From IMG/VR virus record IMGVR_UViG_2737471829_000005: 44,545 bases of DNA; one strand, 5' to 3'. Numbering within the stretch: the stretch's first letter is position 1; each line of letters opens with the position of its first letter. Positions 2,779-44,545 of this stretch are shown piece by piece. Position numbers and translations under genes: made by a program. The DNA is from a virus. Its lineage: Duplodnaviria; Heunggongvirae; Uroviricota; Caudoviricetes. A model generated the notes under the pieces. That model saw only the letters and a program-made list of their open reading frames with translations, searched no databases and was not told the DNA's origin.

Positions 2779-2970
2779 ATGACAAACCTACCCCATGACT
2801 ATTACGTCAACCTCGTAAAGATCCTTCTCAAGAAAGCCTCATACGCCGATAAATTCCGCCTGGCTGAAATCATCGAGCGCGAAGCTATGCGCATCGCCAG
2901 CAACGATAACGCTGTTTCTGACGCAAAAATCTCCCTCGTAACCAAAGTAGTTATGGGAGGTGCAAAATGA
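2779..2970 (+). CDS. Small protein (63 aa) overlapping the antirepressor start; Icd-like position
   Basis: ATG at 2779 with GGAG 8 nt upstream; stop overlaps the antirepressor ATG (ATGA). Confidence 0.45.
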   Translation: MTNLPHDYYVNLVKILLKKASYADKFRLAEIIEREAMRIASNDNAVSDAKISLVTKVVMGGAK

Positions 2971-4112
2971 AAACGCTTCCGACCGTTAACACCCTACAGC
3001 CTATCCTGCATAACCAAATCCCTGTCATTACTACCGAGTTACTAGCACAGCTTTACGGCACTGAGCCGGTGCGTATTCGCCAGAATCATCATGAGAACAA
3101 AGCACGTTTCGTTGAAGGGAAACACTTTTTCAAAGTTGTTGGTAATGACCTTAAAGAATTGCGGGTAGCTTTAAACTACTCTCAAAATCCAGTTTCACCT
3201 AAAGTCCGCTCCCTCATCCTCTGGACAGAACGCGGGGCTGCACGTCACGCTAAAATGCTCGAAACCGATCAGGCGTGGGATGTATTCGAACGGCTGGAAG
3301 ACTGCTACTTCAACCAGAACGCGCAAACGGCCGCGACCGTAACCGTCTCACCAAACAATGCTCGTGAGGTTGTCGATACGCTCAACGCTAAACCAATGTA
3401 TTACATTAAGGTGTGCAACAACGAGCCACTCACAACCTCAGCCGATGTTGCCCAGGCATTCAGCACCACAAACAATTCCATCGTTATGGCCATCGATGCG
3501 TTACGCATTCCTCGCACAGCTGCGGCGCGTCACTTCTTTAAAGAGCAACGACCGCTGGAAGGAAGCGACCGCGAAATAACAATCTATCGCATGACAAAAG
3601 ACGGATTTACCTTGCTCATGGAGAGCATCGACGGTCCAAGCGTGAAAGATATCAAGCTGGCCTACATTGAAGCCTTTAACGCTATCAGCAGCGTGTTAAA
3701 AACACAGTACGAGCGTGATCTGGCTAAACGACTATACCAGGAAAAAACGATTATCCGCGCGGCAACAGAGCATAATCGGCTATTAACGGAACCGAACTAC
3801 AGGAAGGAACTAATCAAGGAGTTTGACAAGGCAACAGGGAAAACCAAAGCGGCGCTAAGTCTGCCAGCAATGACTCAGGAAAATGTGATATCAGCCTTAC
3901 TTCTTGATCTGCTCAGAAACGCCAGAGCACTTATCAGCTTTGACGAAAACCTGAATCCTCAGCTCAAGCTACTACCACCGACAGGCAAAGTAGTCGACCA
4001 AGCAGATCACAACAGCATACTCAGCGTACTGGATGCAAACCTGCCAGCCAGGACACTACAGGATCTGATAAAAACATGTGCTGATAAGCTGGCACAGAAA
4101 AGCAGACCATAA
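2967..4112 (+). CDS. Phage antirepressor (Ant-like; ORF6N/AntA-type N-terminal domain)
   Basis: 381-aa ORF; N-terminal region typical of antirepressor/Rha-type proteins; terminator directly downstream. Confidence 0.65.
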   Translation: MKTLPTVNTLQPILHNQIPVITTELLAQLYGTEPVRIRQNHHENKARFVEGKHFFKVVGNDLKELRVALNYSQNPVSPKVRSLILWTERGAARHAKMLETDQAWDVFERLEDCYFNQNAQTAATVTVSPNNAREVVDTLNAKPMYYIKVCNNEPLTTSADVAQAFSTTNNSIVMAIDALRIPRTAAARHFFKEQRPLEGSDREITIYRMTKDGFTLLMESIDGPSVKDIKLAYIEAFNAISSVLKTQYERDLAKRLYQEKTIIRAATEHNRLLTEPNYRKELIKEFDKATGKTKAALSLPAMTQENVISALLLDLLRNARALISFDENLNPQLKLLPPTGKVVDQADHNSILSVLDANLPARTLQDLIKTCADKLAQKSRP

Positions 4113-4921: not shown

Positions 4922-5194
4922 TCATTTGATCCCTTGTTCCAATTCTGACGACACTTTAACCTTTTCCCATACAAGGGTTTGCAGCCTTAACAGAATCGCA
5001 TCTTTATCAAGGTGTGAAAGATCCTTAACCATATCGTCAAACGACAGAACGCGAATGGCCATCTCAATGACCCTCGGCGGCTCCCCCTTCTCATATCGCT
5101 TATATGTAGCCAACGATATCCCAAATTCTTCGGCGGCTCGCTCCTGCGTCCAGTTCATCCCACGACGCCATAATTTCAATTCATAACCCGTCAT
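4922..5194 (-). CDS. HTH (XRE-family) DNA-binding protein
   Basis: ATG at 5194 with AGGAGG RBS; HTH motif WTQERAAEEFGISLATYKRYEKG. Confidence 0.65.
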   Translation of the reverse strand: MTGYELKLWRRGMNWTQERAAEEFGISLATYKRYEKGEPPRVIEMAIRVLSFDDMVKDLSHLDKDAILLRLQTLVWEKVKVSSELEQGIK

Positions 5195-5222
5195 AGCATC
5201 CTCCTCGCACAATATTAACACT

Positions 5223-5249
5223 CGCAAAGTGTCAAAATGACACTTTGCG
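5223..5249. promoter_or_regulatory. Perfect 12-bp inverted repeat cgcaaagtgtca-aaa-tgacactttgcg between the 126-aa gene and the HTH gene; operator or attenuator hairpin
   Basis: Palindrome read directly; sits in a 60-bp intergenic gap. Confidence 0.5.
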
Positions 5250-5257
5250 CATTGTGT

Positions 5258-5638
5258 TTACTTAACGAGGAATAAAAATGGTTTATTGTTCGGCGGTGTA
5301 ATCGGGGCTGGCTCGCTTTTGCTCATGCGATCAGTGTACCAGGCCAGCTCCTTGTCAAAGTAAGCCTGATTAAAATAGGCCATGAATGTAGTTTCAAATC
5401 CATAACGACCGCTAATACGCAGCATCTGATTGCCGTTCTCTGTTTCCAGATATACCTGGGCACGTTCCTGATTCTCCTTCAGCCAGGTTAAAGCCTCATC
5501 GCACGAGGACACACGGTACTCATCATCGTAGCCGTCATCGATGCGGCTTGAAGAAGAACGGCAAATCACGCCAACAGAACCAGCCAGGATAGTTTGAATT
5601 TTAAGGAAAGCATTTTTGCGGATTTTAATCATGCTCAT
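5258..5638 (-). CDS. Hypothetical protein (126 aa), first gene behind conserved leader cassette A
   Basis: ORF begins directly at the conserved leader RBS. Confidence 0.5.
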   Translation of the reverse strand: MSMIKIRKNAFLKIQTILAGSVGVICRSSSSRIDDGYDDEYRVSSCDEALTWLKENQERAQVYLETENGNQMLRISGRYGFETTFMAYFNQAYFDKELAWYTDRMSKSEPAPITPPNNKPFLFLVK

Positions 5639-5755
5639 CGGGTTATCTCCGGTTTAACCAGGGCGGGTATCGCTCGGTTTCGGTTATAACCTTAGGAAAT
5701 TTTTTCCCACCTGTAAAGCATTTTTTATATAAATATATAATTATATAATTCTATG
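5639..5755 (-). repeat. Conserved promoter-leader cassette, copy A
   Basis: More than 90% identical to 37715-37823 and 44444-44545; holds the AT-rich motif, a TTTACA hexamer, GGGAAAAAATTTCC, and a leader ending at GGAG and ATG. Confidence 0.8.
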
Positions 5756-5801
5756 AGCACAAAAAAGCCCCTTTGCAACAGGGGCTTATCATTCGTTCTG
5801 A

Positions 5802-11753: not shown

Positions 11754-14108
11754 TTACACCTGTGCGACGTTATACCATGTGCCATTGATGTATTTTTGTA
11801 TTGGTCTGAAGATGGCTTCATCATCGCCATCTACTTCACCAATGATTCTTAATCCGGTAATTGCGTGTCCGGCTTTTTCATAACGACCACCACGCGCCAT
11901 CAATTGAACAACACGCGTACCCAGGCGAACATCTTTCACATAACGGGAATCAAAGTTACCGTAATCCGAGGGGTTAACACGCCCTGTAATATTTATGGTT
12001 TTATTACTTTGAATGCTGCCGGAGACAAAGCGCATAACATGGACGTTATTAGCATAAACGTCCAGATTACCGTCGCCATTTTGTTTAAAGCCCGTGTCAT
12101 TATCACCCAAAACAATCGAGTTACCGCCAAGAGCACTGGATGTTCCGATGCCCAGTGCACCATTCAATTGACCTCCAGATAATGACAACGCCCCAACATC
12201 AGCAGCAGTCGGTTTAATGTGCGAACTGTAAATTACATATACAGTTCCATCTGTCAGGCCTTTTGGTTTATTCGCTGTATAAGTTGGTGATGTATGAATC
12301 GTTACGCTGGCGTTACTGGTATAATCCCACTGAATATTAACACCTGTGGCGTAATTACCTATTTCAACATAAACATCATAGGTATCACCGGATGTATTCA
12401 CCCATGCAAAATTAGTAAATCCAACCGATGTCCGTCGCCATAACGCACCAGTAAGACCTTTTGGATTTCCATTTCCCGCACGAAGAACAAGTTCAGATAT
12501 ACCAGCCTGCATAGGGGAGTTAACATTATATCCAGCACCACCAATCAGGCTTATGTAAACCACGGAACTGGCCTGGGGCATGGTTACAGTTGCCAGCCTG
12601 AACCATCCTGTACCACCACTAAAAGACATGGTTGTTGAATTTGTTGCTCCAATATTGCGCAGGAATAATCTTTTATCAGGAATATCTGCGCCATTCTGGT
12701 TTTTCTGCAACGCACCAGAAGCCTGATTTACCGTTTCCTGTAAACCGAGGTATTCGATAACGGCGGCAACGGTCGATTTCGCAAGAATATCCCGCCCGAC
12801 TTTTGTCAGAGTTGCCAGGCTGGCGACATCATTCCCCGTAAAATACGGAAACCTGTCTGCCGCAGTAGCAAGCCCGGCCAGCGCCGTCAGGGTGGCATCT
12901 TTCGGTTGCTTACCCGCAAGCGCGTTAGTCATGGTGGTCGCAAAATTCGGGTCGTTGCCCAACGCCGCAGCCAGCTCGTTCAGCGTATTTAGTGCGTCAG
13001 GCGACGAGTCCACGAGGGCAGCGATCGCAGCCATAACATAAGCCGTGCTTGCGATCTGAGTATTGTTAGTACCTTTTGGCGCAGTTGGTGTTGTTGGTGT
13101 TCCGGTCAGCGCAGGACTGTTTAAGGGCGCTTTCTTGTTCGTTTCATCCATTACCGCCTTAACAGCTTTTGGTGTCGCAGCCAGCGTTTCAGACGTGCTG
13201 TTAGTGGCACTACTGAGCTGAGTTATTCCCCTTACAGTCAGTGAAGCTACAGGCACATTTGTTATCTGCTCCCACGAATGCGTGTGATTGGACGGAGCCT
13301 TTCCGGCCGCAAGATCATACGCTGCCTTAACAGCCTTTGGTGTTGCTGCTAGCGTTTCAGACGTGCTGTTGGTGGCACTACTGAGCTGAACAATCCCTTT
13401 TCGCGCTGTGGTAGCGTCCTGTGCGGTGTATTTAGCGTTAGCAAGGTCATATGCTGCCTTAACAGCCTTAGGCGTCGCAGCAAGCGTTTCAGACGCGCTA
13501 TTGGTGGCGCTGCTAAGTTGAACAAAGCCTTTTGAGGTTAAAGTTGCATCAGGATGATTACGTGATTGCTCATGTTTCACAATGGCTTGCTTAAGCCGCT
13601 TTGCTGAAACAGCAAGGGAATCATCTGTACCTGCCTCAATTTCTTGTTCATTAGCAAATCTTGCCACCCCAACAACAGTTTCGGTCGCGGGAGGATTAAT
13701 AAACTCAATATCACCAAATGTAATATTTTTAGTATCAAGAGTCTTAATTGCTATATCACTTGATATTAAAGCGATAGTAGATGATGCTTTATTTATTATT
13801 GCTTGTTCTTGTGAGTATACAGCAAACAACGCCCCCTTATTCGTATACAATCCTATTGTATGGACAACATACTCATCTTTACTATCATCCTTCGCTGTTA
13901 CATGAATTGTATCAGGGGAAACAACTTTGCCACCTATTGTGGTAAGTCGTTTTATTTCGTTTGTTATATTTGTTTGTGAGGTTGACGTGACATAATATCT
14001 ACTACCTAAACCAACAGAAACAATCTCAACTTTATTTGTTCCTGTTTTGTTGGCATTAACCAGCTCCTGACGCCCGGCGTCAGTCATCGTAAATAATAAT
14101 TTACTCAC
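11754..14108 (-). CDS. Tail fibre protein (S); constant N-terminal part outside, variable C-terminal part inside the invertible segment
   Basis: 784 aa; repeat-rich; crossover repeat lies inside the ORF at 12679-12751. Confidence 0.85.
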   Translation of the reverse strand: MSKLLFTMTDAGRQELVNANKTGTNKVEIVSVGLGSRYYVTSTSQTNITNEIKRLTTIGGKVVSPDTIHVTAKDDSKDEYVVHTIGLYTNKGALFAVYSQEQAIINKASSTIALISSDIAIKTLDTKNITFGDIEFINPPATETVVGVARFANEQEIEAGTDDSLAVSAKRLKQAIVKHEQSRNHPDATLTSKGFVQLSSATNSASETLAATPKAVKAAYDLANAKYTAQDATTARKGIVQLSSATNSTSETLAATPKAVKAAYDLAAGKAPSNHTHSWEQITNVPVASLTVRGITQLSSATNSTSETLAATPKAVKAVMDETNKKAPLNSPALTGTPTTPTAPKGTNNTQIASTAYVMAAIAALVDSSPDALNTLNELAAALGNDPNFATTMTNALAGKQPKDATLTALAGLATAADRFPYFTGNDVASLATLTKVGRDILAKSTVAAVIEYLGLQETVNQASGALQKNQNGADIPDKRLFLRNIGATNSTTMSFSGGTGWFRLATVTMPQASSVVYISLIGGAGYNVNSPMQAGISELVLRAGNGNPKGLTGALWRRTSVGFTNFAWVNTSGDTYDVYVEIGNYATGVNIQWDYTSNASVTIHTSPTYTANKPKGLTDGTVYVIYSSHIKPTAADVGALSLSGGQLNGALGIGTSSALGGNSIVLGDNDTGFKQNGDGNLDVYANNVHVMRFVSGSIQSNKTINITGRVNPSDYGNFDSRYVKDVRLGTRVVQLMARGGRYEKAGHAITGLRIIGEVDGDDEAIFRPIQKYINGTWYNVAQV
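12679..12751. repeat. Right inverted repeat of the invertible segment, inside the tail-fibre ORF
   Basis: Reverse complement identical to 9697-9769. Confidence 0.85.
13156..13527 (-). repeat. Three tandem coding repeats (about 70 nt conserved cores) inside the tail-fibre gene
   Basis: Encode the repeated peptide SSATNS.SETLAATPKAVKA. Confidence 0.7.
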
Positions 14109-18447: not shown

Positions 18448-21232
18448 AACTTAATCTCCGTTGTTGGAACATATGAGCACTCAATTTCTTCTCAAAATCA
18501 GAATATCCCGCATCTAATGCTCTTTTAGCTGCCGCCTCAGTTTCCTTTGGTGAACCAGCCGGAAGATTGATTACAGGTGAATAGGTTATTCCACCAGTCA
18601 CAGCGTTAACGTTCTGGCGAGGTCCAGAAGTCCCGGCGGCAGATATCCCGTGAGGTGATAAATTTGATTGCCCGAACTTGGTTGCTATTGCATTCTGTAA
18701 GCTGTTATTCCTGCTAACACCTGATGCCAGAGTAGTCATTATTGCACCACCTGACTTTGTTAGCTGTGAGAATGGACCTTTTTTCGCGTCAGAGAACGGT
18801 AAATACTCACGTACAGAAGAAAAAACGCCTTTCACTTCATTAATTAAAGCATTTGCTTTTGATTTTATCCCAATGATTAACGTCTCAATTATTTTTGCAC
18901 CTGACTCACTCCAGTTTATTCCAGATAAATAAGCCGTTACAGATTGGAATGCTCTTATAAAGAGTCCAACTGGCGAAAAACGCATAAAAACAGATACCAG
19001 TGTATCTATGATTTTCTTTCCTGTTTCGCTCCAGTTAATGCCAGAAAGGTAATTTGTTGTAAGTTTAAATGCTTTAATTAAGAACGGAAGCGGAGACATC
19101 CATTTAAAAGCACTAATTAATGTACTGTAAATTCTTACTCCTGCCGAACTCCAGTTTATGTTGGAAAGATAATCCCATGCTTTACCAAATATAGATATAA
19201 TCCATCCATTGAGATCAAAGTTTAAGATAAAGTTTTTTATAGTCTCAAACGATTTAACTGTATATTCCTTAACAGAAGGCCAAACTCTGACAGCATAATC
19301 TCTGATCTTATCCCAGTTCTGATAGAGCAATATTCCTGCGGCAACCAGCGCAGATATAGCCATCTGAATCCACCCGAAGGGTGTTAGCTTTGTCGCTACA
19401 GATAAAGCCAGCATAGCTACCCTACACGCTATAACCACACTTTTCATGGTTAGAAACGCACCTGCCGCCATCACTATCTGAGACACAAAATTGGGGTTGT
19501 TAGCTACAAATTCACTAATTTTTGTAATCAGCGGAACCAAAACACTAAGCGCGGCATTCAAAGCAGGTTGCAAGGCCTGACCAAAACTTAATGATGCATT
19601 GCTAGCCTGAATACGTAATTGTTTCAATCGCTCCGCATTATCTTTCGTTATGTTGGCAAAATCGCGGTCAATAACAGCACTTCCAGCTCCAAGAGATGTT
19701 GCTTTGATTCTCTGGTATTCCTTCCAGTTTTGAATCATCGGACGAACAAAGTTCTGAACCTGCATATCGCCAAATAGTTCACCAAGTAACTTCTGATCTC
19801 CGTTCTTAGTCATTTTCATGACAGAATGCATTGCAGCTTCGAATGGATTCTTCCCTTTTTTCTGCGCTGTTGTGACAATTTTATATAAATCTACACCGAA
19901 ATTTTTCTTTGCTTTTTTTAGTGTTTCAGGGGAAAGTATTTTTGCCAAAAAGTTGTTCATATTATTAGCAGCCTCATCCGAAGTTGCAGCACCTTTGCGA
20001 GCTATCTGCAAAGCTGCCCCCATCGTCGCGGCGGCTTCTTTACCTCCCATTTTTAATGCCTGGAACTGAGCACCAAGCACAGGAAGATTTTTGGCCATAT
20101 CTTTAAATTCAAAGTTTCCCTCTTTCCCTGCCTGAACCAGAATCCCCATTGCAGACTTCATTTGAGATGGATCAATCTTCAATGAGTCACTTAATGTAAA
20201 TGATGCTTTCGAGACATCGAGGATATCAGAGCCAGTAGCTGTAGCTGTTCGCCCAATAGTTAGTAGATTCGCCTGAGCCTCTTTATAATCCTGCCCAGCA
20301 GCGACGAGAAAACCCTGAGCGGCCTGAATATCAGATGCAAACTGGTTGGTGGCCGTTCCGGTAACAAGCATCGCCTGCCCCATCGCCTGAACTTCTTCCG
20401 GCTTCATATCTGCCGTAAGACCAATCATTTTGTTTTCACGATTGAAATTTGCTGCATTGTTAGCAGCAGCAAATGCACCAGCCGCTACAGCACCAGTTTG
20501 TAATCCTGACCTTACAAGTTGACTCTTTGCCTCACCAAGATGCTCTCGCTTCAATTCACGCTGCCTTTCCAACGCGCGGTTTAACTCCTCCTGAGCACGT
20601 TTTACTGCAAGAACATTTTTCCGTGCTTCAGCCAACGCATTTTTATAACTGTTAATTTTATCAATACGTTGTTTTTCTAATGCCCGGTTAAGTTCCTCCT
20701 GCTGTTTTTTCACTTGCTGAACATTTGCTCTGGCTAAAGCCAAAGCCGTTCTGTAGCGGTTAACCTGCTCAACGCTACGGGCCTGAGCCTCACGATTACG
20801 ATCAATGCTTGCTTTAAGCTCTTTCTCTCTTGAGGCCAAAGCTCTGGCAGATGTATCAGCTCCCTGATACGCAGACTTTAAAGCGGCCAGTTCTTCACGC
20901 TGAGAACGTAGTGATGCTCGTAAATTTGATGAATGTGTTTTTGCCTTCTCAAAGTCACGAAGCATCGCTCTGGTTGGATTGGCCGTGTTTTTTATTTGCT
21001 TCTGTAACTCTTCAACGCGAGCGGCAGCTTTATGATATTCGAGGGCAGTCTGTCCAACCTTTACTTTTACAGATTGTAGCTTTTGAATTTCCCCATGTTC
21101 TTTCGTTAATCCAGCAAGCTCGGCATTTAATTTAGCAACAGCCTGATTAGCTGTAGTAAAACTTTTGGGGAGAGAGGCGGCAACTTTGCCGCCAATTTCA
21201 AAAGCCAGCTTAAAGTTCTTATTGCTGGCCAT
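18440..21232 (-). CDS. Tail tape measure protein
   Basis: 930 aa; coiled-coil-rich N-terminal half and hydrophobic segments; follows the frameshifted chaperone pair. Confidence 0.85.
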   Translation of the reverse strand: MASNKNFKLAFEIGGKVAASLPKSFTTANQAVAKLNAELAGLTKEHGEIQKLQSVKVKVGQTALEYHKAAARVEELQKQIKNTANPTRAMLRDFEKAKTHSSNLRASLRSQREELAALKSAYQGADTSARALASREKELKASIDRNREAQARSVEQVNRYRTALALARANVQQVKKQQEELNRALEKQRIDKINSYKNALAEARKNVLAVKRAQEELNRALERQRELKREHLGEAKSQLVRSGLQTGAVAAGAFAAANNAANFNRENKMIGLTADMKPEEVQAMGQAMLVTGTATNQFASDIQAAQGFLVAAGQDYKEAQANLLTIGRTATATGSDILDVSKASFTLSDSLKIDPSQMKSAMGILVQAGKEGNFEFKDMAKNLPVLGAQFQALKMGGKEAAATMGAALQIARKGAATSDEAANNMNNFLAKILSPETLKKAKKNFGVDLYKIVTTAQKKGKNPFEAAMHSVMKMTKNGDQKLLGELFGDMQVQNFVRPMIQNWKEYQRIKATSLGAGSAVIDRDFANITKDNAERLKQLRIQASNASLSFGQALQPALNAALSVLVPLITKISEFVANNPNFVSQIVMAAGAFLTMKSVVIACRVAMLALSVATKLTPFGWIQMAISALVAAGILLYQNWDKIRDYAVRVWPSVKEYTVKSFETIKNFILNFDLNGWIISIFGKAWDYLSNINWSSAGVRIYSTLISAFKWMSPLPFLIKAFKLTTNYLSGINWSETGKKIIDTLVSVFMRFSPVGLFIRAFQSVTAYLSGINWSESGAKIIETLIIGIKSKANALINEVKGVFSSVREYLPFSDAKKGPFSQLTKSGGAIMTTLASGVSRNNSLQNAIATKFGQSNLSPHGISAAGTSGPRQNVNAVTGGITYSPVINLPAGSPKETEAAAKRALDAGYSDFEKKLSAHMFQQRRLSFG

Positions 21233-37492: not shown

Positions 37493-37714
37493 TTAATGCT
37501 CGCGTCGTCCGGCGACAACTTCGGATTTGTATTTCAGGTCGCCCAGCAAGAATTGCAGCTTAAGCATCTTTGCCGCCGTGTAGTTCCCTGATTCCACAAC
37601 CTCTTTCATGAGGTCATAAACGGCCGCTACATCATCAGCCAGGAACTCTTTGCGTTGCTGATCAGTCGCACGTTTGAAGGAAATACGCATTACTTTACGG
37701 TCTTGTTCTTTCAT
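37493..37714 (-). CDS. Hypothetical small protein (73 aa), first gene behind leader cassette B
   Basis: ATG directly at the conserved leader RBS. Confidence 0.55.
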   Translation of the reverse strand: MKEQDRKVMRISFKRATDQQRKEFLADDVAAVYDLMKEVVESGNYTAAKMLKLQFLLGDLKYKSEVVAGRREH

Positions 37715-37823
37715 CGGGTTATCTCCGGTTTAACCAGGGCGGGTATCGCTCGGTTTCGGGTATAACATTAGGAAATTTTTTCCCACCTGTAAAGTACTTT
37801 TTATATAAATATATAATTCTATG
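37715..37823 (-). repeat. Conserved promoter-leader cassette, copy B
   Basis: More than 90% identical to copies A and C. Confidence 0.8.
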
Positions 37824-38406
37824 ACACTTGCCAGAGAGCATCATGCAACTGGATACCTCCGTTGCACTGGTTGCCCCAGCCATGCCAGCCATCAGGTAAA
37901 TCACCGCGAGCAAACAGCTCAATACGAGGAACATCACCTAACAGTCTTACCAGCTTGTCACGAACCACATCAGGCTTCCGTGAATGTTCCAGACGAGGCG
38001 ATGTAAACGACTGAATGATCCCCGCATCAAGGCGGGTCGGCAGTTTGCCTTTTACCGCAAACAAGCAATCTTCACTGTTCGCACGAGTCATATGCCCCAT
38101 CCCCATCACCAGCTTATCTGGCTGTCGGCTACCACATTTGTTCCATGTGAAGCCCTTCATGGTCATCAGCCTGAACCCCCATGCTTTCACCACCAGCAAC
38201 GCTTCTTCTGGCTGAGTCGGAACCCACCACATGGCCAACAAACACGATTCAGGATTAGCAAGCTGCCAGACAGGAATACGAGCAATCTCCTCAGCTTTCA
38301 TCGTTGGATACTTAAAACCAGCTCCACGATTCCCATCCTTACACTTGTCTTTGTATTCCCAGGGGGGATCTGCATAAATCAGATTAAACAATGCAATTGC
38401 CTCCAT
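37819..38406 (-). CDS. MT-A70 family N6-adenine DNA methyltransferase
   Basis: 195 aa; DPPW catalytic motif near the N-terminus (LIYADPPWEY). Confidence 0.8.
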   Translation of the reverse strand: MEAIALFNLIYADPPWEYKDKCKDGNRGAGFKYPTMKAEEIARIPVWQLANPESCLLAMWWVPTQPEEALLVVKAWGFRLMTMKGFTWNKCGSRQPDKLVMGMGHMTRANSEDCLFAVKGKLPTRLDAGIIQSFTSPRLEHSRKPDVVRDKLVRLLGDVPRIELFARGDLPDGWHGWGNQCNGGIQLHDALWQVS

Positions 38407-38714: not shown

Positions 38715-38790
38715 TGGTGGCCCCTACCGGATTTGAACCGATGACCGTGCGATTATGAGTCGCCTGCTCTAACCACTAAGCTAAGGGGCC
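38715..38790 (-). tRNA. tRNA with CAU anticodon (Ile2-like or Met elongator; not distinguishable by eye)
   Basis: Reverse complement is GGCCCCTTAGCTTAGTGGTTAGAGCAGGCGACTCATAATCGCACGGTCATCGGTTCAAATCCGGTAGGGGCCACCA: 7-bp acceptor stem, D-arm, CTCATAA anticodon loop, GGTTCAAATCC T-arm, encoded CCA. Confidence 0.85.
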
Positions 38791-38882: not shown

Positions 38883-38929
38883 ATGGTTGATGCGTGCGCC
38901 CATGAGAAAAGCGCATAGAATGTTGTAAC

Positions 38930-38965
38930 TATATATTTATATAATTATAGAAATATATATTACTT
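38930..38965. promoter_or_regulatory. AT-rich recurrent motif copy; candidate promoter for the tRNA unit
   Basis: ctatatatttatataattatagaaatatatattac. Confidence 0.35.
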
Positions 38966-42654: not shown

Positions 42655-43020
42655 TCACTTCAACTCCTCCCGACGACGTTCCTGAAGCTCTAGCATTGCG
42701 GCTCGGAAATCCTGCCACCATTCCTCATCTGCAACGGGGGTGTTCCGCTCCAGCACCTTGTCCGCATCGGCGATCAGGTTTGCCAGACTCTTGTCTGAAA
42801 TCTTCGTTACCGGAGTCGTTGGTTGCTCAACCTGCCCGATAGGTTTTATCGTGCTCAAAAGGAGGCGACGGCGGGAAAGTGGTGCCCCACAACGACGGCC
42901 ATCTTCCTTGCGATATGTTTCTTTCGGACCAACACACCAGGTTGTCGGCGTTTCGCGCAACTTCACTCTTTTCTCACCATCATTGGTAATGATTATTCCG
43001 GTATGGGTTTGGATGCTCAT
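42655..43020 (-). CDS. Hypothetical protein (121 aa)
   Basis: Coupled (ATGA overlap) to the upstream winged-helix gene. Confidence 0.5.
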   Translation of the reverse strand: MSIQTHTGIIITNDGEKRVKLRETPTTWCVGPKETYRKEDGRRCGAPLSRRRLLLSTIKPIGQVEQPTTPVTKISDKSLANLIADADKVLERNTPVADEEWWQDFRAAMLELQERRREELK

Positions 43021-43319
43021 GCCACAGCCCCTCTCAACGGCTTAACTTTGGCTAATAAGGTGTTAAACAACATGGAGTTAGGGTTCATGCCAAATGGCAA
43101 TTCCGGTTTAGCGGAGTAGTACAGGCAACCATTTATTTTCCTGGTTGTTATCTGTCCTTCGGCAACCATGCTTCTCAGTCTGCAACGCATAGAGTTCTGC
43201 GACACACCAATGTGCTCCGCGATTACGTCCACTTTTGAACATGGGTGATCGGTCAGGAAATTAATCACATCTTGGGGGTTAATAATTTTGCGTTTCATTG
43301 TCGAGGCGTCCTTATACAT
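43017..43319 (-). CDS. Winged-helix / HTH DNA-binding protein, first gene of an operon headed by the AT-rich motif
   Basis: 100 aa; DVIAEHIGVSQNSMRCRLRSMVAEGQI resembles MarR/GntR-like wHTH. Confidence 0.55.
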   Translation of the reverse strand: MYKDASTMKRKIINPQDVINFLTDHPCSKVDVIAEHIGVSQNSMRCRLRSMVAEGQITTRKINGCLYYSAKPELPFGMNPNSMLFNTLLAKVKPLRGAVA

Positions 43320-43345
43320 TTATATAAATATATAATTCTATATAC
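43319..43345 (-). promoter_or_regulatory. AT-rich recurrent motif copy upstream of the winged-helix operon
   Basis: tttatataaatatataattctatatac. Confidence 0.4.
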
Positions 43346-43365
43346 GGCGGGAGACATCCCGCCGT
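43344..43365. other. Perfect 9-bp stem hairpin downstream of the DUF3560-like gene; terminator candidate without a clean U-run
   Basis: acggcggga-gaca-tcccgccgt. Confidence 0.4.
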
Positions 43366-43375
43366 AGGCTTACTG

Positions 43376-44443
43376 TCAGGCTTTCAATAGCGATTCTTTC
43401 AGATATCGGGCATCAGCCAGGGCATTTGGAGTAATCTTGCGAACCCATGCATTACGGGTTGGACTCCACTTAAAGGCGCGTGATTTAAGCAGCGAACGAA
43501 TGTTTGCCTCTGGTTTGCCAGGGAAATAAAACAGGATGCGGTTATCCTCTGGATCTATCTCCATAGAAAAGTCGTCGTATTCTTCGCGCTGTGCTCCTGT
43601 TACAGACTTGACCGATTCAAGCTCCTTAATACGGCTCTGTAGTCGTTTGATCTCGGCGTTATTGTTGCTCAGTACGTATGAAGGGAATCCGATGCGCCCA
43701 CAGAAATCTCCGGCCAGTAACTCTTTGGCTTCGCTTTCTGTAAACCTGAGATCGATTAATGCAGAAAGCACCTGTAATTGGTCTTTTTTGTATTTGCGAA
43801 TGGCCTTATTTGCGGCCTTCATTTTGACGTGTGACTTCATGCAGCCTTGCAGCTTACGAAGCAACTTAAATAGCGCATCAGGATCATCAGACGAAATTCC
43901 ATTACGACCAACACCTGCGGCTTTGCTCTCGTAGTGTGATGCTTTACTTTCGCATTCAACAAACGCTTTTCTTAATAACGCATCAGCTTTAGACAAACGG
44001 CGGCGATGGCCTTTCGCGCTATAATGGTCAACTAAAATCGGCTGGCCTAACGGGATCACATCCAACAGGTCATGCGCTCGCTTATGCGCTACCGCACCTT
44101 CTTTTCTGGCTTTTTCTGCACGAGCAATATATCGGGCAAGACGCGCGTTCTGGCGTTCCTGATAGGTGTTTACGTAATCATCTCCGCGCTGCTGCTGTTC
44201 AAGCCATGCTTTGCGCAGATCTTCTGTTACGTCCACCAGCTCCGCAGGGATACAACCAGTTTGGGCTTCATAAGAGTAACCATCCTCATAGATACGCCCA
44301 TCATCTTCAACAAAGAAAAAGGTTTCGTGCTCATCGCTTTTGACCATACGACCATTAACATGGCGTAATAGGTAGCCAGTATCAGTGCTTAACAGGCTGT
44401 TAGGGTTGTTGATCCAGTCAGAAATAATTACTTGTTTATTCAT
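43376..44443 (-). CDS. DUF3560-like protein (355 aa), single gene behind leader cassette C
   Basis: LGQPILVDHYSAKGHRRRL and C-terminal FKWSPTRNAWVRK resemble conserved DUF3560 blocks as recalled. Confidence 0.55.
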   Translation of the reverse strand: MNKQVIISDWINNPNSLLSTDTGYLLRHVNGRMVKSDEHETFFFVEDDGRIYEDGYSYEAQTGCIPAELVDVTEDLRKAWLEQQQRGDDYVNTYQERQNARLARYIARAEKARKEGAVAHKRAHDLLDVIPLGQPILVDHYSAKGHRRRLSKADALLRKAFVECESKASHYESKAAGVGRNGISSDDPDALFKLLRKLQGCMKSHVKMKAANKAIRKYKKDQLQVLSALIDLRFTESEAKELLAGDFCGRIGFPSYVLSNNNAEIKRLQSRIKELESVKSVTGAQREEYDDFSMEIDPEDNRILFYFPGKPEANIRSLLKSRAFKWSPTRNAWVRKITPNALADARYLKESLLKA

Positions 44444-44545
44444 CAGATTTCTCCGGTTTAACCAGGGCGGGTATCGCTCGGTTTCGGTTATAACCTTAGG
44501 AAATTTTTTCCCACCTGTAAAGCACTTTTTATATAAATCTATAAT
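44444..44545 (-). repeat. Conserved promoter-leader cassette, copy C; its promoter end is cut by the window end
   Basis: More than 90% identical to copies A and B. Confidence 0.8.

Follow-up and report, generated by a model that had tools for sequence, protein, structure and literature searches.

Why should an element that injects double-stranded DNA (dsDNA) keep a gene whose relatives lie in the establishment regions of conjugative plasmids? The question is raised by IMG/VR record IMGVR_UViG_2737471829_000005, a 44,545-nucleotide stretch of Caudoviricetes DNA (hereafter the window, by which the whole stretch is meant), where a minus-strand gene close to the end encodes a DUF3560-family protein of 355 aa. 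The window protein is a bona fide member of that family, its gene is a near-core member of the phage-plasmid lineage represented by the window, and it is headed by one of three near-identical promoter-leader cassettes. We tentatively propose that the protein is an entry-phase, DNA-associated factor acting in establishment or counter-defence.

The window region is 99% identical to the 49-kb Yersinia phages vB_YpM_39/41/44, and ~48-kb plasmids match it at 99-100% identity in 74 of 5,426 complete Escherichia coli genomes, with 217 of the 220 matching places located on plasmids. E. coli ATCC 25922 carries the element as a 48,488-bp plasmid, and Yersinia pestis EV76 serves as plating host. Because the plasmid genes of ATCC 25922 (repA, ParA and a RelE/ParE toxin-antitoxin pair, alongside an XRE repressor) occur together with a full myovirus head, tail and lysis set, the element is a ~48-kb myovirus phage-plasmid. 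Two other identities, the pSLy3/SSU5 phage-plasmid group and the 32-kb peduovirus HQ103, were considered and rejected. The DUF3560 gene is found in 74 E. coli genomes, against 75 for the portal gene, which makes it a near-core member of the lineage.

Membership of the family was established by profile searches. Residues 94-216 match Pfam PF12083 (DUF3560) with 107.2 bits (E 7.7e-31), across positions 2-124 of the 124 in the profile, where the gathering cut-off is 27.2 bits, and PHROG 6744, which has no function assigned in PHROG, matches the protein over its full length. An earlier note on this DNA, made from the letters and an open reading frame (ORF) list, had placed the protein in DUF3560 by its motifs and described the family as common on plasmids and mobile elements. 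Both statements hold: a HMMER scan (E<=0.001) returned 5,748 representative clusters at 50% identity, and of the 432 plasmid records with a match, 232 are conjugative. The family assignment itself is ordinary and was already known, since RefSeq uses the label 'DUF3560 domain-containing protein', also borne by 98-100% identical proteins on E. coli plasmids. Across 57 diverse sequences, Q134, P135, L137, H140 and S142 in a first loop and S184, D187 and P188 in a second are invariant, and all are present in the window protein, within its versions of the family loop motifs (I/V)P(F/L)GQPILVGHHSE and GGISSDDPDA.

The family core of ~265 aa corresponds to residues ~90-355 of the window protein and consists of the Pfam domain followed by a C-terminal module that has no Pfam model. 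This module (residues 218-355) aligns through the whole family, with R302, F305, F307, P311, L319, S327 and R335 invariant, and its motif ENRxxFxFxGKP...LK..AFKWSP.R.AWVR is present in the window protein. The module also occurs alone in Firmicute phage and plasmid proteins annotated 'YodL' or 'primase'. A primase reading, as carried by PHROG 19458, was rejected as an artefact of annotation: no Toprim/DnaG or primase-polymerase Pfam domain was found in the window protein or in two annotated members, those of the phages Maintenon and Toutatis, whose label is probably wrong because they hold no Pfam primase domain.

In front of the core, the subfamily of the window protein has an extra N-terminal domain of ~90 residues that most family members lack. 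The subfamily occurs on enterobacterial phage-plasmids and also on conjugative elements of Dickeya and Xenorhabdus. Divergence is faster in this domain, which is 31-42% identical in distant relatives compared with 54-65% for the core. No Pfam or PDB sequence match to it was found, and when its profile was run against 5.8 billion proteins, the sole matches were pieces of the same gene, one of which an insertion sequence had truncated. Many plasmid homologues hold the ArdC-N domain, which binds single-stranded DNA (ssDNA), at the position where the window protein has its unrelated domain. The two superpose in the multiple alignment, yet hhalign gives a probability of 0.3% against the ArdC-N of fused homologues, and the idea of a divergent ArdC-N was discarded. 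We tested for the defining features of ArdC, of a primase, of a polyvalent protein and of a strict leading-region gene and found them absent; the window protein is therefore none of these.

Structure prediction with AlphaFold2 (AF2) on the 57-sequence alignment gave a model with a predicted local distance difference test (pLDDT) score of 91.6, comprising an acidic beta head, a basic bundle and the C-terminal module (Table 1). The bundle is built from helices 93-129, 141-177 and 190-217, carries a net charge of +15 with an isoelectric point (pI) of 10.2, and is predicted to hold the two conserved loops at opposite ends. Searches with the whole model returned coiled-coil look-alikes only, and a PDB sequence search with the window protein found no relative. 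For the C-terminal module the best, and clearly separated, match among solved structures is the T4 middle-promoter activator MotA (PDB 5jlt, 6k4y). Going by the model, we read this fold as a putative beta-sheet DNA-binding scaffold, which does not make the protein a MotA.

The company that DUF3560 genes keep bears on their role. Homologues were found in plasmid leading and establishment regions beside ssb, ardC and klcA. On IncW plasmid R7K the order is ArdC-hyp-hyp-DUF3560-ssb, where hyp is a hypothetical gene; PromA plasmids read kleA/RadC-DUF3560-kfrA-primase-ssb, with the partition genes korA/incC/korB also near; and pO157 reads klcA..ydaB-ydbA(DUF3560)-methyltransferase-ssb-psiB, an IncF-type arrangement. 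Plasmid F was searched and a DUF3560 gene not found. Full-length Xenorhabdus and Dickeya homologues adjoin ArdB-like, LPD29, KorA/KorB and TrwB/TrwC genes. In a P2-like prophage the gene adjoins the integrase, and in a Desulfovibrio phage it lies between an ArdC-N/MPTase protein and DNA ligase. The PromA gene annotated 'ardC' (pMNCK068, locus L003 3930-4736) matches the DUF3560 core at 45% identity to residues 87-352 of the window protein; its label is a misannotation, because the match lies in the core and 268 aa are too few for an added ArdC-N.

The core also occurs in fusions. It is joined to ArdC-N plus the zincin MPTase, to ART-PolyVal (an ADP-ribosyltransferase), to ddrB-ParB and to LPD25/LPD29, and in one homologue (P0142) to a beta-clamp (DNA polymerase III) domain. 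The ArdC-N/MPTase antirestriction pair is the strongest and most frequent partner, and ArdC-N directly precedes the core in many plasmid homologues. This set of partners is that of polyvalent proteins, and the DUF3560 domain is found inside such proteins of 700-2,869 aa. Iyer et al. (2017; PMC5512222) read polyvalent proteins as effectors of the earliest phase of invasion; the main text of that paper does not name DUF3560. In the supplement of Samuel & Burstein (2024; PMC11541004), DUF3560/YdbA is leading-region family 28, with 1,913 members and listed as uncharacterised. The establishment genes orf7-9 of R388 are repressed >500-fold by ArdK/StbA and overshoot after transfer (PMC3937220). Ciprofloxacin induces the DUF3560 gene of pO157 5-fold and, with it, ssb and an antirestriction gene, and plasmid DUF3560 genes are targeted by spacers of clustered regularly interspaced short palindromic repeats (CRISPR) in Klebsiella pneumoniae.

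A second line of evidence concerns the sequence ahead of the gene. A shared leader cassette had been noted there, and a ~110-nt cassette is indeed present in three direct copies (5646-5741, 37722-37817 and 44450-44545), with 96-98% identity across 96 nt. Every copy reads on the minus strand, where it runs into GGAGA-N6/7-ATG at the head of an ORF. The copy ahead of the DUF3560 gene, copy C, is cut by the window end, and its missing 5' part is visible in a 99%-identical Yersinia phage record. Ten copies were compared in an alignment that covers elements of E. coli/Yersinia, Salmonella, Klebsiella and Enterobacter. From 5' to 3' the copies hold AT-rich palindromic 16-mers, an A-tract AAAAAGTG, which we take to resemble the proximal UP-element consensus, a -35 of TTTACA, a 17-nt spacer and a -10 of TA(A/T)GGT. 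The palindrome T(G/A)GGAAA-N3-TTTCCTA takes up the spacer and overlaps the -10, and an invariant ~42-nt untranslated region (UTR) with a weak hairpin (z about -2.3) leads on to GGAG and ATG. In the Salmonella copy, TTTACA-17-TATGGT (9/12) is the only sigma-70-like site called by the promoter scan. Rfam has no match at any of the three cassettes; given this and the weak folding, a known RNA element was rejected as an identity for the leader, of which only two sequence types exist among relatives.

The cassettes are at the same three positions in the Salmonella, Klebsiella and Enterobacter relatives, except that the Enterobacter relative is without cassette A. Between genera they are 88-90% identical, compared with 67-70% for the DUF3560 proteins. 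At the few variable sites the copies agree within a genome and differ between genomes, a pattern of concerted evolution as expected for sites matching one trans-acting factor. The HTH_3 (XRE-type) gene in the unit of copy A (Pfam E 7.8e-07) is a candidate repressor of the cassette palindrome, and it is kept even in the Enterobacter relative that has no cassette A. Judged from the identical spacer palindrome and the concerted evolution, it is plausible that the three units form the same regulon, as the earlier note suggested. Its further suggestion, that the DUF3560 gene had been recruited behind the cassette as an accessory, finds no support: the gene is near-constant, and in every relative fetched, as in 21 viral contigs, the genes behind the cassette include one and the same 126-aa gene in slot A and the DUF3560 gene in slot C. 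The variable cargo slot is the remaining one, slot B, with at least three unrelated small ORFs among relatives; the ORF there has 73 aa in the window, 89-97 aa in both ATCC 25922 and Salmonella, and 76-86 aa in the Klebsiella and Enterobacter relatives.

Downstream of the gene, the 9-bp stem that had been described is present (10 bp as folded; -19.5 kcal/mol, z -2.9) and is kept in four diverged relatives in which the loop changes from TGTC to GCAA. The tail, however, is UAUAUAGAAUU rather than a U-tract, for which reason both terminator scans leave the hairpin uncalled. It is a possible non-canonical terminator or RNA-stability element. Together with the cassette, the gene and the promoter-like module that comes next, it forms a bracket that is conserved in the Salmonella, Klebsiella and Enterobacter relatives and favours the plausible view that the gene is a single-gene unit; because the hairpin behind this view is not followed by a U-tract, transcription may run on into the next gene. 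The module that follows the hairpin, ATAGAATTATATATTTATATAAATGTATAAGGAnGCCTCGACA-ATG, is a second portable promoter-like and ribosome-binding-site (RBS) module; the gene behind it is MarR-like in the window but DndB-like in the Enterobacter relative (locus L014 11100-11150).

The AT-rich palindromic 16-mer TTATATA-NN-TATATAA was observed 12 times against 0.31 expected. Its sites often form overlapping runs in an 8-bp register. Almost all early or accessory units have the motif a short way upstream, and parA and its 82-aa partner (740-988), which resembles ribbon-helix-helix (RHH) proteins, are flanked by it as well. Like the KorB or StbA sites of plasmids, the motif may serve as a global operator or as a centromere-like site.

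How might these features combine? Our reading, which we hold with some reserve, is that DUF3560 is a module used by mobile elements in the first minutes after DNA entry and that the window protein is a stand-alone member. A sigma-70 promoter (-35 TTTACA, weak -10) would transcribe the gene, with the putative palindromic operator covering the 17-nt spacer and the -10; an operator so placed would keep the promoter off in the established plasmid and let it fire on entry into a cell that has no repressor. The protein would bind nucleic acid via the strongly basic helical bundle and the beta-sheet domain that resembles the C-terminal domain (CTD) of MotA, while the acidic, fast-evolving N-terminal domain would engage a host or partner protein. 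The net effect would be that the incoming genome is protected or prepared, through counter-defence or counter-restriction or through help with establishment. The same role is proposed for the ArdC-linked relatives on conjugative plasmids.

Several observations weigh against this proposal. The family is rare in ordinary phages, matching 12 of 50,697 sequenced phage records, three of which are the same element. The window protein reads DHYSA where the family majority reads GHHSE, as do the homologues P0033 and P0063, and PADLOC gave no match for it. The likeness to MotA is at the level of the fold, with 8-9% identity, and beta3-alpha units are common. The E. coli-type promoter (TTTACA-17-TAAGGT, 8/12) falls under the threshold of the consensus promoter scan. 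Moreover, no relaxase or type IV secretion system (T4SS) is annotated in the ATCC 25922 plasmid, and the Salmonella relative is typed non-mobilizable; the element injects dsDNA whereas most relatives accompany DNA that enters as ssDNA, and therefore the role could differ. Lastly, a literature search on DUF3560 returned incidental mentions only and no experiment on any DUF3560 protein, so that function is assigned by guilt by association.

The alternative that survives best is that the protein is a helper of replication or recombination, which would bind incoming DNA and recruit or assist host replication or recombination proteins in circularising the genome, priming it or turning it into a replicating plasmid. 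The window ends ~100 nt upstream of the DUF3560 gene; beyond it, directly upstream of the gene, lies an early operon with a Ref-like RecA-dependent nuclease gene and a DUF1064 Holliday-junction-resolvase-like gene, divergent from the XRE repressor. Such a setting suits a helper, as do the ssb and primase genes beside plasmid relatives, the beta-clamp fusion of P0142, the DNA ligase beside the phage homologue, and the basic, DNA-binding-like fold of the protein. However, with a promoter cassette of its own the gene is more than a member of the recombination operon, the top fusion partner is an antirestriction pair and not a replication enzyme, and the 'primase' label of PHROG 19458 is unsupported by a primase domain in the two members. 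We consider the helper unlikely.

A sequence-specific transcription factor, whose MotA-CTD-like domain would read a DNA motif in the element or the host while the remainder contacts RNA polymerase to bring about a switch after entry, is in our view highly unlikely. It would account for MotA being the best-separated structural match and could make use of the AT-rich 16-mer repeated beside the promoters of the element. Yet the protein shares no sequence similarity with MotA and has no counterpart of its N-terminal sigma-binding domain, homologues are found in very different elements that do not carry the AT-rich motif, and a domain that lies inside polyvalent effectors, fused to ssDNA-binding ArdC-N, would be unusual for a promoter-specific activator.

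Still less probable is a catalytic role, as a hydrolase or a modifying enzyme, in which the invariant H140, S142, S184 and D187 would form the active site and DNA or a host defence protein would be the substrate. The invariance of these polar residues in two loops, together with the name 'hydrolase' given to the YdbA subfamily in some databases, is what speaks for it, but the loops lie at opposite ends of the predicted bundle and the window protein replaces the second His and the Glu of GHHSE. The sole enzyme-like match, in the GQPILVGH motif, covers 27 residues of an exonuclease III chain (E 0.05) and was rejected as chance. The least probable is a maintenance-phase scaffold, a KfrA-like coiled-coil DNA-binding protein for partition or positioning with no role in entry, for although the long helical bundle, the kfrA and korA/incC/korB neighbours on PromA plasmids and the replication of the element as a plasmid with ParA would agree with it, the gene is far from parA and repA, is also found in integrating P2-like prophages and lytic-type phage contexts, and is fused to entry-phase effector domains.

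The entry-phase factor proposed above can be taken further, to a phage-plasmid that runs an establishment regulon in the style of conjugative plasmids and a DUF3560 protein that is a new class of DNA-binding entry factor. Here three unlinked units would share one operator-bearing promoter-leader, which a regulator encoded in one of the units would shut off, giving a burst of expression only in a newly infected cell; the protein, as the constant cargo of the regulon, would consist of a double-wing domain like that of MotA, a stalk of basic helices and an exchangeable head (ArdC-N or acidic beta) that sets the target. We judge this extended version, regulon and entry factor jointly, decidedly unlikely as it stands. 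If true, it would mean that the DUF3560/YdbA family acts independently of ssDNA entry and that plating phage in the standard laboratory strain E. coli ATCC 25922 is a simple way to dissect it; if the gene is without phenotype, the finding is one of routine annotation. DUF3560/YdbA is a large leading-region family and a recurrent module of polyvalent proteins with no reported function, and a phage-plasmid with a near-core, separately promoted DUF3560 gene offers a tractable system for it. The three-copy cassette with its putative operator also shows, in compact form, a regulatory module that evolves in concert. What is new here is modest: the acidic N-terminal head, the predicted MotA-like fold of the C-terminal module, the three-copy cassette with a variable third slot and the retention of a 'plasmid' gene as near-core by a dsDNA-injecting element.

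Table 1. Features of the DUF3560 gene, its cassettes and related sites (window coordinates unless another record is named)
Feature	Position	Strand	Remarks
DUF3560-family coding sequence	43376..44443	-	ATG to TGA, 355 aa; coordinates include stop codon
N-terminal acidic beta-rich domain plus helix, residues 1-90	44174..44443	-	AF2 strands 17-53, helix 67-85; pI ~4.5; subfamily-specific
Pfam DUF3560 domain, residues 94-216	43796..44164	-	Predicted basic bundle of long antiparallel helices; the loops IPLGQPILVDHYS and GISSDDPDA are conserved
C-terminal module, residues 218-355	43379..43792	-	Predicted two short helices, long helix (255-280), then beta3-alpha-beta2-alpha domain
Predicted beta3-alpha-beta2-alpha domain, about residues 281-355	43379-43603	-	Bears ENRxxFxFxGKP motif; residues 285-354 in the AF2 model
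Cassette copy C	44444..44545	-	Heads DUF3560 gene
Copy C RBS GGAGA	44450-44454	-	Then ~42-nt predicted 5'UTR upstream
Copy C -10 TAAGGT	44493-44498	-	Weak
Copy C 17-nt palindrome TGGGAAA-AAA-TTTCCTA	44497-44513	-	From palindrome search; putative operator
Copy C -35 TTTACA	44516-44521	-	
Copy C A-tract plus AT-rich 16-mer	44523-44544	-	
Cassette copy A	5639..5760	-	Drives 126-aa ORF (5258-5638), then HTH_3 regulator gene (4922-5227)
Cassette copy B	37715..37836	-	Drives 73-aa ORF (37493-37714, -), then canonical terminator; downstream of MT-A70 methylase
GC-rich hairpin ACGGCGGGA-GACA-TCCCGCCGT	43344-43365 (43343..43366 as folded)	-	10 nt 3' of stop codon
AT-rich palindromic motif plus RBS module	43320..43342	-	Heads next gene, MarR-like winged helix-turn-helix (43017-43319), PHROG 1687 MarR-family match
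AT-rich 16-mer sites	4-19, 712-727, 5725-5756, 37801-37816, 38929-38960, 43312-43335, 44529-44544		
'Primase' proteins sharing only the C-terminal module	Clostridium phage Maintenon (L015) 3114-4037; Faecalibacterium phage Toutatis (L016) 3138-4058		PHROG 19458

Elsewhere in the window, Rfam identifies isrK (2543-2616, +) and a P1/P7-type C4 antisense RNA (2641-2729, +), with an ORF6N/Rha antirepressor-like gene (2967-4112, +) directly downstream, an arrangement that resembles the c4-ant immunity module of P1/P7 immI type. A full-length match to the small RNA family ryfA (1211-1509, -; 134.6 bits, E 2e-34) lies in the plasmid-maintenance region. Between the lysis genes and the MT-A70 methylase there is a tRNA gene (38718-38790, -), annotated tRNA-Met in one near-identical record and tRNA-Ile in another, which suggests a CAU-anticodon tRNA of ambiguous identity. 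The tail-fibre ORF (784 aa) contains in-frame direct repeats of 93 nt in three copies, 77-84% identical (13141-13533), and the tape-measure ORF (930 aa) contains 45-nt repeats at 120-nt spacing (18891-19175).

How, then, does the window protein compare with systems that are already described? Its likeness to the double-wing C-terminal domain of T4 MotA is one of predicted fold, unaccompanied by a MotA N-terminal domain, and may be that of a generic beta-sheet DNA-binding scaffold. ArdC of pSa/R388 and the ArdC-N polyvalent proteins are frequent fusion partners or neighbours of DUF3560 and belong to the same stage of the life cycle. ArdC binds ssDNA and lets R388 evade type I restriction in the recipient (PMC7213743). 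Unlike ArdC, the window protein gives no Pfam hit to ArdC-N (PF08401) at E<=1 and none to the zincin-like MPTase-PolyVal domain, which is readily detected in fused homologues. Unlike polyvalent proteins, it is a solo protein with a single family core and not an assembly of several unrelated effector domains. The element itself differs from the leading regions of conjugative plasmids in carrying phage head, tail and lysis genes with repA and ParA.

YdbA (pO157p46 and ydbA of pMccB17, in IncF-type leading regions) also matches the DUF3560 profile of Pfam (2.9e-36 in pO157p46); in pO157 its helical bundle is 27% identical to that of the window protein, and it has a small-domain motif of FRWAP type. 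Like the window protein it is uncharacterised, and it lies among klcA, methyltransferase, ssb and psiB, genes that are the first expressed after transfer. Unlike the window protein, YdbA has 453 aa and a different C-terminal half, its element enters as ssDNA, and its small beta-domain motif is N-terminal to the bundle and not C-terminal. Such a permuted domain order is weakly supported, by an hhalign match with E 0.0015 and a probability of 16%, and tblastn with the window protein does not reach YdbA.

Closer to the window protein are the DUF3560 proteins of IncW and PromA plasmids (R7K WP_012196444; pMNCK068 'ardC'), which are 43-45% identical over residues ~90-355, bundle and C-terminal module included. 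They are likewise solo proteins with their own repressed promoter region in an establishment module, but at ~260 aa they have no acidic N-terminal domain and belong to conjugative plasmids, beside ssb. By synteny with R7K, the DUF3560 gene of R388 is probably orf9 of the ardC-orf7-orf8-orf9-ssb block. In the ArdK/StbA circuit of R388 and the KorA/KorB circuit of IncP, several unlinked establishment promoters share an operator, and negative feedback leads to a burst on entry (PMC3937220). The element resembles these circuits in having three identical cassettes that bear a putative operator, one of them driving a helix-turn-helix gene, and differs from them in being a phage-plasmid with an XRE repressor and a C4/ant immunity module besides. 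Taken together, these comparisons suggest that the window protein probably works like the solo DUF3560 genes in the establishment regions of IncW, PromA and IncF plasmids.

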